From positions 1 to 64,000 of the forward strand of contig JBJOKS010000022.1 of NCBI GenBank assembly GCA_046045965.1: a stretch of DNA of 64,000 bases, written 5' to 3'. Position 1 is the first letter of the stretch, and each line of letters begins with the position of its first letter. Under the pieces are notes generated by a model. It saw nothing but the letters and a program-made list of their open reading frames with translations, searched no databases and was not told where the DNA came from. This stretch comes from Cyanobacteriota bacterium (lineage in GTDB: Bacteria > Cyanobacteriota > Cyanobacteriia > Cyanobacteriales > Nostocaceae). Both the position numbers and the translations under genes were made by a program. Positions 40,521-46,931 of this stretch are shown here, in pieces.

Positions 40521-41951
40521 ATGACACTACAAAGCTTTGGTGTGATTGGATTAGCCGTTATGGGCGAGAATATCGCTCTCAACGTTGAGCGCAATGGCTT
40601 CCCAATTGCAGTTTACAACCGTTCTCGCGAGAAAACCGATGCCTTCATGGCGCAACGCGCTGGAGGACGGAATGTGGTTGCAGCCTTTACCTTAGAAGAA
40701 TTCGTTGCTGCACTAGAACGTCCCCGCAAAATTCTAGTGATGGTACAAGCTGGTAAGCCTGTTGATGCGGTAATTCAACAGCTTAAGCCTTTACTGCAAG
40801 AGGGTGACATCATTATTGATGGTGGTAACTCTTGGTTTGAAGATACCGAAAGACGGACTCAGGAATTAGAACCCACAGGTTTACGCTACATCGGTATGGG
40901 TGTGAGTGGTGGTGAAGAAGGTGCGCTGAATGGTCCTTCTTTGATGCCTGGTGGTACAAAAAGTTCCTATGAGTACCTATCCCCCATTTTCAACAAAATC
41001 GCTGCTCAAGTTGATGATGGTCCTTGTGTAACTTACATTGGTCCGGGTGGTTCTGGACACTATGTAAAAATGGTTCACAACGGCATTGAGTACGGCGATA
41101 TGCAGTTAATTGCAGAAGCCTACGATTTGCTGAAAAATGTCGGTGGTTTAAATGCTGCACAGCTACATGAAGTATTTGCTGAGTGGAATAAAACCGACGA
41201 ACTCAATTCATTTTTGATTGAGATTACAGCCAATATTTTCCCCTACGTTGACCCAGAAACTAAGAAACCCTTGGTTGATTTGATTGTTGACGCTGCGGGA
41301 CAAAAAGGCACCGGTCGTTGGACTGTACAAACTGCTTTGGAATTAGGCGTTGCTATTCCTACAATTACTGCTGCTGTTAATTCCCGGATTCTCTCTTCGA
41401 TTAGAGATGAACGGATTGCAGCATCTAAACAATTAACTGGTCCTGTTCCTGCTCAGTTTAAGGATACTAAGACTTTCGTGAACATGGTGCGTGATGCACT
41501 TTATTGTTCCAAAATCTGTTCTTATGCTCAAGGTATGGCGTTGATATCTACAGCTTCTACCACCTATAATTGGGGTCTAAATCTGGGTGAAATGGCTCGA
41601 ATTTGGAAGGGTGGTTGTATTATTCGCGCTGGTTTCTTGAACAAGATTAAGAAGGCGTTTGACGAAAATCCAGCATTACCTAACTTGTTGTTAGCACCTG
41701 AATTTAAGCAAACAATTCTGGATAGACAAGCTGCTTGGCGGGAAATAATTGTGACTGCTGCTAAGATGGGTATTCCTGTTCCAGCTTTTAGTGCTTCTCT
41801 TGATTATTTCGATAGCTACCGTCGGGAACGTTTACCTCAAAACTTGACTCAAGCACAACGCGACTATTTCGGCGCTCACACCTACAAACGTACTGATAAA
41901 GAAGGAACTTTCCACACTGAATGGGTTCCTATCGCTGAAGCTAAGAAGTAA
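40521..41951 (+). CDS. gndA: NADP-dependent 6-phosphogluconate dehydrogenase
   Basis: GLAVMG, KMVHNGIEY, GQKGTGRW, QAQRDYFGAHTY. Confidence 0.98.
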   Translation: MTLQSFGVIGLAVMGENIALNVERNGFPIAVYNRSREKTDAFMAQRAGGRNVVAAFTLEEFVAALERPRKILVMVQAGKPVDAVIQQLKPLLQEGDIIIDGGNSWFEDTERRTQELEPTGLRYIGMGVSGGEEGALNGPSLMPGGTKSSYEYLSPIFNKIAAQVDDGPCVTYIGPGGSGHYVKMVHNGIEYGDMQLIAEAYDLLKNVGGLNAAQLHEVFAEWNKTDELNSFLIEITANIFPYVDPETKKPLVDLIVDAAGQKGTGRWTVQTALELGVAIPTITAAVNSRILSSIRDERIAASKQLTGPVPAQFKDTKTFVNMVRDALYCSKICSYAQGMALISTASTTYNWGLNLGEMARIWKGGCIIRAGFLNKIKKAFDENPALPNLLLAPEFKQTILDRQAAWREIIVTAAKMGIPVPAFSASLDYFDSYRRERLPQNLTQAQRDYFGAHTYKRTDKEGTFHTEWVPIAEAKK

Positions 41952-42050: not shown

Positions 42051-42080
42051 TTGAATTTAGCTCAAAAGCTATGCTATAAT
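42051..42080 (+). promoter_or_regulatory. Strong sigma70-type promoter with extended -10
   Basis: TTGAAT-N18-TATAAT with TGn before the -10; no credible ORF directly downstream. Confidence 0.65.
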
Positions 42081-42097
42081 TTTCAAAAAAATATCAT

Positions 42098-42379
42098 GCG
42101 GGGATAGCAGGTGTCTATGCTTTCCCAAAAGCTTCGTAATAAAGGTTCTTCTGGAAGTTTTCAATGGCTGTTCAACAGTGCAAGAGTTGTCCTCTTTCTT
42201 CGTGAACATTAAGGATAGTCTTATGATTGCACCTGTTATATACGTTATTGTCGGTTCATGCGGGGTAGCGTTGCTGCGGAGGTCTGGTGACTACCCAAAT
42301 GTACTGAAAGCAGTGCTGGAAGCTAAAAGAAATTCCTGTCGAAGAGTCAACGCTGGGGGTTCGATTCCTCCACCCCGCA
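42098..42379 (+). ncRNA. Unidentified structured RNA with a 3' tRNA-like domain (42260-42379)
   Basis: Acceptor stem GCGGGGT/ACCCCGC+A, T arm GGGGG-TTCGATT-CCTCC, helix AGCGTTG/CAACGCT; 5' domain closed by ATAGCAGGTG/CACCTGTTAT. Confidence 0.65.
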
Positions 42380-42587
42380 CTTTCCATAACATACCTGTAA
42401 AATAGAAGGTTGGGCTAACTAAAGTAAAACCAATAACCTTGCAAGAATGATTAAATACGTTAGAATAAGAGATGTATTGCGATATTTAACAATAGTGAAA
42501 TACATATATAAGGTAAAATAATTAAGCAACAATAGCAATAATATTGTCATTAAAAATCAAAAATGATCTCATAAACATAAAAAAGCT

Positions 42588-44039
42588 ATGTATATACGAA
42601 AAATTGAAATTAAAAATCTGTGGGGAAATGATTTTTTATGGACACTCAATGAAGATGTAAATGTTTTGATTGGCAAAAATGGTTCAGGAAAATCAACAAT
42701 ATTACGAATGCTTCATGAAGCAGTATTGCCTGTTGAAGATAGCAAATTAAACTTTAGGTTATTTGACCCCATTGATGAAATAATTATCGAGTTAGAAGAT
42801 GATATTGTCGTCAGAGTTAATAGTGAAAGTAGAAGTATAACGGCAAACAAAGAAATTACTAATTATAAACTGAATATAAACTTTATTAATACTTTTGATG
42901 TCGTTGAAAACGGGTTAAGCTCAGATACCACATTACTTGACTACCAACTTAATAAATTAAAATACGAGTTTGTTACTTATCAAAGAGATTTATCTAATCA
43001 AGTAGAGGAAGAATTTAAAATTAATTTTAAAACAAATAATATTAATGATCAAGCATCAAGAAAAAATCAATTAGATAAAATTGAATCTATCTATGAAACT
43101 AAAAATAAATTCATTAAGATATTAAATCAACTATTTTCTGAGACAGAAAAGAAATTTGATGAAAAGGAATTTCATTTTTTAAAAGAAGGCATACAAACAC
43201 CCATATTACCAGAGGATTTATCATCTGGAGAAAAACAGATATTGATTATTTTATTAACAACATTACTTCAAGATGCCAAAGATTATATATTGTTAATGGA
43301 TGAACCAGAAATATCCGTGCATATTGATTGGCAAAGGAGTTTAATAGCAAATATAAGAGAGATAAATCCAAATTGTCAAATTATTCTTACCACTCATTCA
43401 CCGACTGTTTGGTATCAAGGTTGGATTGAAGAAGTTACGCACATAGAAGATATTCAGTCAACTTCAGATTTAGTAACAGAAAGTACAATTCTCAAAGAAA
43501 AAACTGATCAATTAGGAGAGCGTGTAGAAGAAATAAAAGATATTTTTAGTGGCTTTTCAGGCAACAATTTACGTAAACTTTATCAATTTAATCGCAAAAT
43601 TAATGAATATACTTTATTTACAAAAGATGAATGCCTTCAATTGTTGAAATTTCTAAAAGAAAACAAGATTTATCCTGATGTCATCACATTTACTACTCTT
43701 ATTTCCAAACTCACTAATTATCAAGATGCTAAAGATATTTTCGATTTAATGGAAGCAGAAACTTATAGTAAATCATCTCATGTCAAGCCTAATGATATAA
43801 CTCTTAATACTTTGATCAAAAAAGTCAGTGGAGTTGAAGAAGGTATTGAACTTATTCAAAACATAAATGAAAACATGGAATTGCGTCCTGATATTATCAC
43901 TTTTAGCACGTTGCTTGGGAAAGCAAGAAATATGGATGAGATTACATTTCTTGAAGATGCACGAACTTACTATGGAATTAAAGCAAATAATATATACTTA
44001 AATAAATTAGCTTTTAAGGGGTTTCAGGGAGGACGATAA
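42588..44039 (+). CDS. ABC/AAA_21 ATPase (PARIS AriA-like) with C-terminal PPR-like repeats
   Basis: GKNGSGKS, LSSGE, LLMDEPE, TTHSP; repeats PDVITFTTLI, PNDITLNTLI, PDIITFSTLL. Confidence 0.85.
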   Translation: MYIRKIEIKNLWGNDFLWTLNEDVNVLIGKNGSGKSTILRMLHEAVLPVEDSKLNFRLFDPIDEIIIELEDDIVVRVNSESRSITANKEITNYKLNINFINTFDVVENGLSSDTTLLDYQLNKLKYEFVTYQRDLSNQVEEEFKINFKTNNINDQASRKNQLDKIESIYETKNKFIKILNQLFSETEKKFDEKEFHFLKEGIQTPILPEDLSSGEKQILIILLTTLLQDAKDYILLMDEPEISVHIDWQRSLIANIREINPNCQIILTTHSPTVWYQGWIEEVTHIEDIQSTSDLVTESTILKEKTDQLGERVEEIKDIFSGFSGNNLRKLYQFNRKINEYTLFTKDECLQLLKFLKENKIYPDVITFTTLISKLTNYQDAKDIFDLMEAETYSKSSHVKPNDITLNTLIKKVSGVEEGIELIQNINENMELRPDIITFSTLLGKARNMDEITFLEDARTYYGIKANNIYLNKLAFKGFQGGR

Positions 44040-44042
44040 GTA

Positions 44043-45044
44043 ATGAATTTGTATGAAGTAGCTGCCCAAAGAATGCAAGAAGAAGCTCGCTAAAAAAGGT
44101 GTGAAATTTCTGTATTGGTTGAAGATGTTTATGATGAAGAATTTTGGAGACTTATTATTGAAAATGTTAAACCGAATTTAAGAAATAAAATTTATTTCCC
44201 ATATCCCAGTAAGAAAGGAACACGCGGAAAAGATACTTTAAAAAAGTTTAGAGAGTTCGTTAATAAAAAATTTATTATTTGTATTGATAGTGATTGCGAA
44301 TACTTGTACGATAATAATGTTTGGTATATCGCTGACTATATTTACCATACAGTTGTTTATAGTAAAGAAAACTTTCAGTGTAATCATTTTTCATTAAATG
44401 AAATATGCAAAAGTTTAACCACAGAAAACTATGATTTTAGCAGTTTACTTGAAAATATTTCCCGAAGAGTTTCTCCTCTATTTTACGTTTGGTTCTACTT
44501 TAAAGAAATCAACTACAATAATGTTGAGCATCTTATAAATAATGAAGCATTTGCAAGAATTTTAAATTTTCAAGATAGTCAATTCGACAATATTGGAGAT
44601 GAAAATATCTTATTTCAAAATATTGAAGATAGAGTGAAAAATATATTACAAAATCTAAAAAATGTCATGGACAATGATAGTTGGTATGAATCAATATTTA
44701 CAATTGATATTCCTAATATACAAAATCGGTTAATAGAACAATACTCAATACATCCAGAAGATATTTTATCATTTTGCTGTGGACATGGTGTATTAGACCA
44801 ATTTGTTGAACCTTTTATGAGAAAACTCATTACAATATTAAAGAATTTAAAAATAGAAGAAGTAAAACAGGCTTTAAGTGAAGACAAAAATATTGATAAC
44901 ACAATTAGTCGTATCGAAAATATTGCCAGACGAGACATTAAGACTATGTTAAACACCAGTTTAATATATCTCCTTCTTTATAATGCTGTCGAAAATCAAC
45001 AGATGCAAGAAATTAAAGACAAACTAGCTAGAGAACTGAACTAG
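44043..45044 (+). pseudogene. DUF4435/TOPRIM nuclease (PARIS AriB-like) interrupted by an in-frame TAA at 44091
   Basis: ATG 44043 after GGAGG, in frame with ORF 44115; VLVED..D, IDSD, YSKEN motifs. Confidence 0.72.
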
Positions 45045-45257
45045 TGCGATCGTAAAGCGCATCTGCAAGCAGATCGCCCTTAGTTAATGGAAATACGTTA
45101 AGATAAGGGATGTAGTGCGGTGTTTAATAATAGTAAAATATGACAAATCAAGAGTTTTTAAAAGTAGGAATCTTAAAAATGTATCAAAAGGTGGAGATAA
45201 AGTGAAAAGATTCTATCTTTAATTGGATATAGCTTCTGTCTTTAGGGACATTAAACA

Positions 45258-45512
45258 ATGCTGAAAAAGATTAATTCTATAATCTCCAAAAATACTGAAA
45301 TTTTTCAAAAAATAACAGATGAACAAGCAGCTTTTATTAGTGGTGGTATGGAGATACCTGTAGCTCCTGATATACCTTCTATACCTTATGATGTTGGTGA
45401 GCTAACACCTCAAATTCCTAATCTTCCTAATCTTCCGGTTGATCTGCTTAATTCTGTTCCTACTACTTTTCCACTTGATATGAGTTCTTTTGGAGTTCCC
45501 GTAACTGTTTAA
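45258..45512 (+). CDS. Small protein with a double-glycine-type leader and Pro-rich core
   Basis: FQKITDEQAAFISGG followed by a Pro/acidic core; has its own terminator. Confidence 0.7.
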   Translation: MLKKINSIISKNTEIFQKITDEQAAFISGGMEIPVAPDIPSIPYDVGELTPQIPNLPNLPVDLLNSVPTTFPLDMSSFGVPVTV

Positions 45513-45782: not shown

Positions 45783-46931
45783 TCAACCATTCCCCAAAAA
45801 CTTAGCCTTCATCTCCTCCAATTCTTTATCTACAGCATCGTTATTATTAGGATTATTAGTAGAAACAGAAGATTGTGGTGTCACATTTTGCGGTTGCACC
45901 TTACCACCAGTAAACTGTGTTTTTAATTCCAATAATTCCTTCTCAAGTTGACTAGGAGTTTGAGGAACAACAGCAGGTGGAGAAATAGGAGATTTTTGTT
46001 TAACAGGTTGATTAATAATTGTGGGTGGGATAACTGCGGGAGATTGAATATTTAAATTATTATTTAAATCTTTAAGAACTGCATCAGTTGTTTGATAACG
46101 CTGACTAGGGATAGTTTCTACCATTTTGTCAATAATATTACCCAATTCCTTACTAACCGGACTTTTCAAATATTGTCGCCATACCCAAGCAGCGTTATGG
46201 GTATCATAACTATCAAAAGGCGATCGCACTGTTAACAAATTAATACAAGTTACCCCTAAACTATAAATATCACTGGCAAAAATTGCCCTTCCTCGCATTT
46301 GTTCTGGTGCAACATATTCAGGACTACCAATACTCGTACCTGTGCGATTTAAAGCCTCACCTGCGGTAGATTTTGCCGCTCCAAAATCAACAATTACTAG
46401 TTTATGATCACTACCCCGACGAATAATATTTTCTGGTTTAATATCTCGATGAATTACTTGTTTACCATGACAAAATTGCAACACAGGTAATAAATCATTT
46501 AATAATTGTCGAATCTGAATTTCATTAAAAGCACCTCTATTTGCTAATTCCTGAGCCAAATTTAGCCCATCAATAAATTCTTGGACTAAATACTGTCTGT
46601 CATCTTGAGTACAATAAGCCAACAGTGCGGGAATTTGCGGATGTTGTCCCAAATCATCCAACTGTACTGCTTCCTGGTTAAATAACTCTATCGCTTTTTG
46701 TACCGTATTTGTACCTTGAGCTTGGGGAAAAAATTGCTTAATTACACAGGTAGGTTTTGAGGGTTTATCCTCATCCACCGCTAAAAAAGTTCTCCCAAAA
46801 CCACCTTGTCCAATGGGTTTAATAGCGCGGTAACGTTCTTTTAACAGTAACTTAGTACCGCAAGTTAGACAAAACTTGACATCATCAGGGTTTTCCGGTT
46901 TAGAACAATGGGGGTTAAGACAGTAACTCAT
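45783..46931 (-). CDS. Cytoplasmic Ser/Thr protein kinase with 4-Cys N-terminus
   Basis: YCLNPHC..FC..CG, IGQGGFG, HRDIKPEN, DFG, APEQ. Confidence 0.95.
   Translation of the reverse strand: MSYCLNPHCSKPENPDDVKFCLTCGTKLLLKERYRAIKPIGQGGFGRTFLAVDEDKPSKPTCVIKQFFPQAQGTNTVQKAIELFNQEAVQLDDLGQHPQIPALLAYCTQDDRQYLVQEFIDGLNLAQELANRGAFNEIQIRQLLNDLLPVLQFCHGKQVIHRDIKPENIIRRGSDHKLVIVDFGAAKSTAGEALNRTGTSIGSPEYVAPEQMRGRAIFASDIYSLGVTCINLLTVRSPFDSYDTHNAAWVWRQYLKSPVSKELGNIIDKMVETIPSQRYQTTDAVLKDLNNNLNIQSPAVIPPTIINQPVKQKSPISPPAVVPQTPSQLEKELLELKTQFTGGKVQPQNVTPQSSVSTNNPNNNDAVDKELEEMKAKFLGNG

Follow-up and report, generated by a model that had tools for sequence, protein, structure and literature searches.

A PARIS-type cassette with a PPR-tailed AriA beside a separate tRNA-like RNA gene in a cyanobacterium of the Nostocaceae

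Can a structured RNA and a pair of defence genes that stand side by side in a cyanobacterial genome be parts of a single system? The question is raised by contig JBJOKS010000022.1 of a member of the Nostocaceae, where, within the 64-kb stretch of DNA that was analysed (the window, on which the coordinates of all features are given), a promoter and an RNA with a tRNA-like end are followed by an ABC ATPase gene whose product carries a C-terminal PPR domain, and then by a DUF4435/TOPRIM gene. An earlier reading of the letters alone (the sequence-only reading) saw here one RNA-linked defence system; as posed, that finding does not hold. The locus is a PPR-tailed PARIS, an undescribed variant, with a dead effector gene in this genome. 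With a probability of roughly 0.78, positions 42588-45044 represent a horizontally acquired, PARIS-type abortive-infection cassette with a PPR-tailed AriA, lying beside an older, independently transcribed and separate RNA gene. Throughout, Lnnn denotes a locus and Gnnn a genome, G000 being the source genome; the features of the window are collected in Table 1.

By published rule, PADLOC and fold, the AAA_21 plus DUF4435 pair is PARIS, as the sequence-only reading had recognized. In Rousset et al. (2022; PMC9122126), the detection rule calls for AAA_15 at 32 bits or more, or AAA_21 at 27 bits or more, together with DUF4435 at 27 bits or more, both genes being required. The ATPase scores 88.6 bits for AAA_21 (1e-24) and 65 bits for AAA_15, and the adjoining gene, whose ATG stands 3 nt past the ariA stop, scores 57.8 bits for DUF4435 (1.8e-15). 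A PADLOC search, which had been suggested as a check, names the two proteins AriA (6e-52) and AriB (9.1e-24). The four ATPase motifs described earlier are likewise all readable (Walker A GKNGSGKST, signature LSSGEKQ, Walker B LLMDEPE and H-loop TTHS) and are invariant in the family alignment, and all of 28 AriB homologues keep the TOPRIM residues E27 and D82-S-D84. Solved AriA chains in the Protein Data Bank (PDB) match residues 160-275 at 4.6e-15. When an AlphaFold model of AriA built from 31 family members (pLDDT 83, pTM 0.78) is searched with Foldseek, AriA chains (8v45-8v47, 8ux9) occupy ranks 1-10, with E-values of 5e-9 to 3e-8 and TM-scores of 0.36-0.57, followed by Retron/Septu PtuA and Rad50.

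The closest characterized counterpart is the PARIS of E. coli B185 (8ux9, 8v45-8v49), in which an AAA_15/21-group ABC ATPase also lies directly 5' of a DUF4435/TOPRIM gene; the TOPRIM glutamate and DxD are present here as well, and the AriA chains are the best structural match. The insertion that separates Walker A from the signature is much shorter in this protein than in E. coli AriA (query residues 160-275 align with chain residues 317-429, and the match ends about 35 residues before the C-terminus of E. coli AriA). The protein also bears a PPR tail of ~190 residues that has no E. coli counterpart, and its AriB partner has no sequence match to the PDB AriB chains and is encoded by a gene that is broken in the source genome. 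Another set of relatives comprises short, tail-less AriA proteins of the AAA_21 type (PADLOC PDLC04164), encoded by 318-aa open reading frames (ORFs) in G255 and G419 and by genes on two Bacteroidales plasmids (Bacteroides/Phocaeicola). These proteins share 37-41% identity with the ATPase core over residues 2-290 or 2-291, and at L030 a DUF4435 partner is likewise present; they lack the C-terminal PPR domain, which is the distinguishing addition of the subfamily considered here.

The damage to ariB, already implied by the sequence-only reading's call for a repaired copy, consists of an in-frame TAA at codon 17, where three aligned orthologues carry glutamine. It falls just before the conserved SVLVED..YD strand, the first TOPRIM strand, which bears the TOPRIM glutamate. 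Because the nonsense codon precedes this strand, the system is probably inactive in the source genome, which lacks the intact effector that PARIS requires; judged from its sequence, the locus is a PARIS member by descent that is probably non-functional in this host. The ORF that remains is 309 aa long, and the gene is intact, at 332 aa, in L017 and L055.

The relation between the RNA and the PARIS genes was followed in both directions, starting with the neighbourhoods of 24 RNA loci, each taken to 5 kb on either side or to the contig end (the metagenome loci L069 and L071, with an identical RNA, and the G451 locus were left out). An AriA/AriB pair was present in three of them (the window, L017 and L055), all with gnd upstream and all belonging to one gnd-syntenic lineage, and was absent from the other 21. 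In six loci with gnd-RNA synteny, namely L016 and five contigs from metagenomes, the position immediately past the RNA is taken instead by a small ORF, and in five of the six Uma2 comes next. Specifically, the close relative L016 reads gnd-RNA-Uma2 with an RNA that is 97% identical and with no PARIS. In the empty site, the sequence past the RNA leads into a small ORF that is the one found behind ariB in L017. Conversely, the three other full-length PPR-AriA loci (L027, L028 and L029, in G035, G419 and G148) have no RNA within 1.5 kb by BLAST or by covariance model R1, and no tRNA genes by ARAGORN or Rfam families nearby. Across these whole genomes, BLAST with the RNA came up empty for G419 and G148, and for G035 it gave no more than a match of 29 nt on a different contig; the model search found nothing in G035 and a 24-bit match 2 Mb away in G148. 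The sequence-only reading had itself named two observations that would count against the RNA link, namely the RNA beside gnd in relatives without the ATPase and its absence from other PPR-AriA loci. Both were made, the former in L016 and the five metagenome contigs and the latter in G035, G419 and G148, and the link is therefore not supported. The parts are co-oriented, as had been said, but comparisons across loci give no support for their being one unit.

The composition and borders of the cassette point the same way. GC content is 0.24-0.31 over 42400-45000, so that the AT-richness noted earlier is confirmed, compared with 0.41-0.47 in gnd (40521-41951; 6PGD, 4e-133), which lies upstream of the RNA promoter. 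A stretch of roughly normal GC content extends 3' of the promoter up to about 42380, and only after it does the low-GC block begin, carrying ariA and ariB in the same orientation. A pair of 50-nt direct repeats brackets the two genes, and the same pair is seen in a relative's locus (L026); the RNA lies outside these repeats, ending about 70 nt before the left copy begins (42453). The low GC content, the direct repeats and the presence/absence polymorphism at the same site together argue for acquisition of the cassette. The reported lack of HIP1 sites was also considered as a mark of foreign origin and was rejected. Indeed, no GCGATCGC site occurs between 39382 and 46220, the longest HIP1-free stretch of the window, but this gap spans gnd, the RNA and the PARIS cassette alike. 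With 25 GCGATCGC sites per 64 kb (0.19 would be expected by chance), the window averages one site per 2.6 kb, and since the gap also covers gnd, a 2.5-kb cassette without a site is unremarkable.

The PPR module predicted for AriA is real and stands on three Pfam families, each above its cut-off over residues ~340-412 (PPR_2, 31.9 bits against a cut-off of 30; PPR_3, 29.8 against 25; PPR_1, 28.3 against 23.8), on the match of residues 347-470 to designer or consensus PPR proteins (6een_A, 2.2e-53, with single stretches at about 1e-9), and on the AlphaFold model, in which the tail is all-helical with paired helices over 327-476. Like the P-type PPR proteins (dPPR10, 6een; cPPR, 5orm; PPR proteins of plant organelles), the tail shows the ...PDVITFTTLI... 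motif, helical hairpins and repeats over 347-470; it differs from them in having only about 4-5 motifs, in its fusion to a bacterial defence ATPase and in that its RNA binding is a prediction. PPR proteins are rare in bacteria, and as a family they are RNA binders in which two positions per motif set the base preference. With the motifs placed in register by alignment to dPPR10, the residues at the fifth and the last position of each read N335/D364, T369/N402, N407/D435, S440/N467 and N472, and they are invariant or at least 90% conserved among 31 sequences of 49-91% identity. By the PPR code, the combinations N/D, T/N, N/D, S/N and N would correspond to U, A, U, A and a pyrimidine.

The tail is also widespread. 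A search with residues 295-483 alone returned 98 clusters, 97 of which also carry AAA_21, with lengths of 298-520 aa, from Dolichospermum, Anabaena, Sphaerospermopsis, Microcoleus, Nostocales, Desulfobacterales and Pseudomonadota records, and the AriB partner forms a parallel family from the same taxa. Among 401 genomes sampled evenly across the order, full-length PPR-AriA was found in G000, G002, G035, G419 and G148, the last with one in-frame TAA; none was found in phage records, and the plasmid matches were tail-less relatives only. The tail marks a populous subfamily (97 AAA_21-bearing clusters) that has spread horizontally. No description of a PPR-bearing AriA was found in literature text, where a tail shown only in figures would be missed, which agrees with the earlier statement that no description of the combination was known. 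A complex prediction of the AriA tail (295-483) with AriB scored 0.00 and, having been run without controls, is evidence neither way.

What the tail does bears on two of the alternatives that have to be weighed. The original proposal, that the tRNA-like RNA is a working part of the PARIS variant (a decoy substrate, an antitoxin or a guide) read by the PPR tail, has the RNA-binding character of PPR motifs in its favour, together with a co-oriented RNA close to ariA with no predicted terminator between them, and an arrangement kept in three loci. AriB-type nucleases, moreover, cut tRNA according to the account of the E. coli system (PMC11464382). The three loci are, however, a single gnd-syntenic lineage, the 21 other RNA loci and the relative with the 97%-identical RNA do without PARIS, L027, L028 and L029 are RNA-free by every search applied (BLAST, covariance model, ARAGORN and Rfam), and the RNA sits outside the repeats that bracket the cassette, so that this proposal is largely refuted by distribution and must be called very improbable. 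Alternatively, the tail could be a protein-binding solenoid, serving as a sensor of a phage-protein trigger or as a docking surface for AriB or AriA, much like the trigger-binding domain of E. coli AriA. About 4-5 motifs are few for specific RNA binding by PPR proteins, and E. coli AriA has no equivalent tail. The PARIS triggers known from the same account are proteins, such as Ocr (PMC11464382). Against this stand the closeness of the motifs to canonical, RNA-binding P-type consensus proteins and the near-invariance across the family of the very positions thought to set base preference, and we regard a solenoid of this kind as rather unlikely. Because the fifth and last motif residues are conserved, RNA reading is preferred to a purely protein-binding role: on its sequence, the tail most likely reads single-stranded RNA, and by analogy it is the best candidate for the sensing surface of AriA in this subfamily.

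Joined to what is described for E. coli, where the AriA scaffold restrains AriB until a phage trigger releases it and AriB then cuts tRNA (PMC11464382), these observations suggest how an intact member of the subfamily might work. By homology, AriA oligomers would keep AriB inactive, and a phage-derived trigger would cause AriA to release it; the freed AriB, with a TOPRIM site made of E27 and D82-x-D84, would cut host tRNA and bring translation to a stop. The PPR tail would act as the trigger-sensing surface by reading single-stranded RNA. The ariA-ariB cassette itself would have been inserted between the 50-nt direct repeats, downstream of an RNA gene that was already there. PARIS senses phage proteins in the known case, and a subfamily with a conserved PPR array suggests that some PARIS may read RNA; this is directly testable with the intact orthologues.

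The neighbouring RNA is apparently an independent, undescribed family and the more unusual object of the interval. Its single-sequence fold is modest (z = -2.19, with 4 of 100 shuffles as good), and its structure is established from comparative evidence. An alignment of 26 sequences, 20 of them distinct, was assembled from 12 genome loci, 12 metagenome contigs, the window and G407. RNAalifold predicts 43 pairs from the distinct sequences, and 98.1% of the alignment cells at these positions are paired, compared with 44-51% when the partners are slid; seven pairs change on both sides, which 3 of 500 shuffles reach, and 20 cells do so, which no shuffle of the 500 reaches. The RNA has a 5' hairpin and a long hairpin. 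In the 3' domain, a 7-bp acceptor stem (42260-42266 with 42372-42378) is followed after one linker base by an 8-bp helix (42268-42275 with ~42345-42353), where C-G is replaced by U-A in two sequences and G-C by A-U in three. Two small hairpins separate this helix from a T arm (42355-42371) with a 5-bp stem, in which G-C becomes A-U in three sequences, and the loop UUCGAUU; the discriminator is an A at 42379, and CCA is not encoded. The structured RNA with a tRNA-like end that had been proposed is thus upheld, at ~293 nt and with a covariation-supported 3' domain of 120 nt, and so is its strong promoter, whose -10 hexamer keeps its position in the homologues.

The likeness to tRNA is confined to the acceptor stem and the T arm, there being neither a D arm nor an anticodon arm. 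The missing arms explain why ARAGORN reports no tRNA or transfer-messenger RNA (tmRNA) gene in the window and why a search of Rfam stayed empty at gathering score and, for the body of the RNA, even at E<=10, the tRNA family included. Identity as a tRNA was rejected on these grounds, and identity as tmRNA was rejected since the acceptor 5' strand is internal and the tmRNA of this genome lies on another contig (G000:C1:141829-142219; 126.8 bits). In its general plan, where the acceptor stem stacks on a canonical T arm and other structure stands in for the anticodon/D region, the RNA resembles tmRNA, mascRNA/MALAT1 and the tRNA-like structures of plant viruses. As in tmRNA, an mRNA-like part that contains a short ORF is attached to the tRNA-like part; in contrast to tmRNA, that ORF has its own Shine-Dalgarno (SD) sequence and AUG, the acceptor 5' strand falls at ORF codon 13 rather than at the RNA 5' end, and most copies carry G3-C70 in place of G3-U70. 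Among the 40 tRNAs found by ARAGORN, tRNA-Gly(UCC) on contig C40 of G000 is the closest at the ends, agreeing at 24 of 34 positions and having the same T loop, with G1-C72, C2-G71 and G3-C70 in the RNA. The margin over tRNA-Met (23) is small, and the RNA differs by its lack of D and anticodon arms and by the discriminator A of most copies.

Homologues of the RNA are patchy. BLAST with 42085-42400 found matches at E<=0.001 in 4 of the 60 nearest genomes, three of them with full-length copies, and in 13 genomes of the 401-genome sample, G000 and short partial matches included, from two families only. A motif pattern recovered 12 loci among the genomes of 185,579 species, all of them cyanobacterial (Anabaena, Sphaerospermopsis, Cylindrospermum, Scytonema, Microcoleus, Coleofasciculus, Myxacorys, Sphaerothrix and Leptolyngbyaceae), and 12 further metagenome contigs. 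Of 151 genomes from the family, 9 (G451 among them) give strong hits, above 160 bits, with covariance model R1, and there is a weak tier besides; of four weak matches inspected, two are tRNA-gene-like with a UUCCAAG stretch and two are divergent copies, L095 and L096. The latter (in G303) is a divergent tRNA-like domain that keeps the acceptor stem, the second helix and the T arm. Searches of phage records, plasmids and viral contigs gave no match to the RNA.

Upstream of the tRNA-like domain, the RNA contains an invariant AAGGA-N4-CUUAUG, with the SD sequence AAGGA at 42211-42215 and the AUG of the possible short ORF at 42223. The start-codon region pairs with a conserved CAACAGUGCA in the long hairpin, which sequesters SD and AUG, and in the alignment the Cylindrospermum copy appears to exchange one A-U of this hairpin for G-C. 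The hydrophobic N-terminus MIAPVVYTTVGSCGVALLRR is conserved over the first 12-20 codons (MIAPV(I/V)Y..VGSCGVALLRR), and the tail of the ORF varies in frame and length among homologues, with a stop at codon 13 in L072. Counts of synonymous and nonsynonymous changes in the three frames gave 0.64-0.68 for the ORF frame and 0.40-0.94 for the others, so that the frame is not singled out. In L095 (1501-1666, G005), a distant and AT-rich relative of the RNA (GC 0.34), AAGGA-N-AUG is kept ahead of a 25-codon hydrophobic ORF, MIITVVYVIDLWFIHGNIIAIFWRL, and there is no recognizable T arm.

Outside the gnd-syntenic clade, the 24 loci revealed no protein gene that constantly accompanies the RNA. Most of the genes nearby are accessory, including Uma2 (PADLOC PDC-S03), DUF29, a PIN toxin-antitoxin pair, HigB, ParDE with TnpB, DUF433, HNH, PDC-S32 and a phage-type lysozyme. 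For example, in a Cylindrospermum-type genome (L020, 8468-10323), an AAA_21 ATPase (PADLOC AbiLi, 1.9e-20) and a DUF4276/HEC-01B-like partner form an AbiLi/HEC-01-like pair that lies divergently, 167 nt from the RNA 5' end. In another example (L024, 7929-10684), a decayed copy that has lost the acceptor 5' strand and the ORF start and kept the 3' ~110 nt is followed by XisH after 50 nt and, after 700 nt, by a full Septu pair (PtuA, 4.9e-167; PtuB, 2.1e-82). Finally, in the metagenome loci L070 and L074, the SD-short ORF-tRNA-like core is joined to an unrelated 5' part that replaces the usual one. Directly upstream of this core, L074 (504-2477) has a SMODS (CBASS-type cyclase) gene and a HEPN-type gene, and L070 (502-1603; the locus holds only 1,840 bases) a HEPN-type gene, both HEPN-type products being 265-270 aa long with a Cthe_2314-like HEPN match. 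The Scytonema-type genome G496 holds two copies, L091 (G496:C1:~1086117-1086303) and L064 (4001-4058 region); one of them is 89% identical to L060, from a Microcoleus metagenome-assembled genome of another family of the order, and only 77.5% identical to its companion. As the two copies differ in their nearest relatives, the sequences suggest that the RNA gene has moved horizontally.

Three accounts of the RNA gene compete on this evidence. It might chiefly be an mRNA that encodes a small hydrophobic product, either a type-I-toxin-like peptide or a small membrane protein, with the tRNA-like domain as a 3' stabilizer or processing signal. The invariant and sequestered start region, the conserved hydrophobic N-terminus, the survival of SD, AUG and a hydrophobic ORF in L095 after loss of the T arm, and the toxin-antitoxin and defence genes nearby all speak for such a peptide. 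The substitution pattern does not favour its frame, however, the tail of the ORF shifts and may stop at codon 13, the strongest conservation and covariation sit in the tRNA-like domain, and no antisense partner was identified, so that the account is doubtful. More plausible, if still somewhat short of even odds, is that the RNA gene acts as a hot spot for recombination or integration, as tRNA and tmRNA genes do, which would by itself explain cassettes such as PARIS beside it. Almost every lineage has different DNA immediately 3' of the RNA (Uma2, DUF29, ParDE, PIN, HigB and PARIS are among the accessory genes there), copies that are decayed or reduced to a 3' part occur (L024 and L012), and one genome has two copies with different nearest relatives. 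On the other hand, no integrase is seen next to any RNA copy, no attachment-site-type duplication of the RNA 3' end was found in the window at up to 3 mismatches, and the upstream flank varies too, which implies that the RNA itself also moves. The third account, in which the short ORF and tRNA-like RNA form a portable immunity-related module, is improbable; such a tRNA mimic would travel in cyanobacterial defence islands as a decoy, sensor or antidote for adjoining effectors (PARIS, Septu, PIN, HEPN), with the PPR tail as one reader, and might be processed by RNase P/Z and possibly charged. Our own reading is that the RNA is an accessory gene of defence and toxin-antitoxin islands whose flanks are a place where cassettes accumulate, and PARIS lies beside it because those flanks gather such cassettes. 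As an undescribed family of ~290 nt that is patchy, horizontally moved and usually found among defence or toxin-antitoxin genes, the RNA merits a study of its own.

Expression was gauged from assembled metatranscriptome contigs, whose depths are only a weak hint of it because each contig carries one depth figure and the RNA libraries may contain DNA. In run X3, a 294-nt contig covers 42105-42377 without differences at a word depth of 700.5, and the pieces on ariA in that run reach depth 3; a second study contributes run X1, in which the contig over 42163-42385 has depth 70.7 and the next one, over 42384-42620, depth 3.5. The high-depth contigs of both studies end at about 42377-42385, which is the predicted RNA 3' end, and the RNA forms such contigs in lake and sediment metatranscriptomes. 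Cover of ariA and ariB is low and patchy, comes partly from relatives at 90-95% identity and may include DNA carry-over, and no conclusion is based on it.

Several points weigh against an acquired PARIS cassette that is independent of the RNA and dead in its effector. Read-through from the RNA promoter into ariA is possible, since the two are co-oriented and 208 nt apart, no terminator-like site lies between them and one metatranscriptome contig reaches from 42384 to 42620. The RNA may likewise be tied to defence genes in some looser functional way, because other copies adjoin ATPase-nuclease pairs (L024 and L020) and SMODS/HEPN genes (L070/L074). A restart at the TTG could, from the sequence, yield an N-terminally shortened AriB with some activity. 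The function of the ariA-ariB pair is assigned by homology, and the TM-scores between the predicted structure and AriA are modest, which is attributable to a large insertion of E. coli AriA that is absent here and to its lack of a PPR tail. The AriB of this clade is too distant for a sequence match to any solved AriB chain, a PDB search with an intact orthologue returning a single chance-level match.

Table 1. Features of the RNA gene and the PARIS cassette on the window
Feature	Position	Strand	Remarks
RNA promoter	42051..42080	+	-35 TTGAAT, 18-nt spacer, TG-extended -10 TATAAT; 10/12 consensus positions
Conserved ~293-nt RNA	about 42087..42379	+	homologues, covariation, no Rfam family; 5' end inferred from promoter
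Possible short ORF within RNA	42223..42405	+	60 aa; first ~12-20 codons conserved
tRNA-like domain	42260..42379	+	120 nt; covariation in second helix and T stem
Left 50-nt imperfect direct repeat	42453..42502	+	84% identical to 45091-45140
ariA	42588..44039	+	ABC ATPase residues 1-~290; PPR domain about residues 327-476 (nt 43566-44015)
ariB pseudogene (DUF4435/TOPRIM)	44043..45044	+	TAA 44091-44093 = codon 17; remaining ORF from TTG 44115
Right 50-nt direct repeat	45091..45140	+	abuts start of next small ORF

Two further ORFs lie beyond the cassette. The first, of 84 aa (45258-45512, + strand), has no Pfam match and consists of an N-terminal part ending in ...EQAAFISGG and a proline-rich tail; it presumably resembles the double-glycine leader peptide of a bacteriocin or of the precursor of a ribosomally synthesized and post-translationally modified peptide. 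The second, just past the cassette (45783-46931, - strand), is Ser/Thr protein kinase-like with a Cys-rich, zinc-ribbon-like N-terminus, and its counterpart in L017 matches Pkinase at 2.2e-42.

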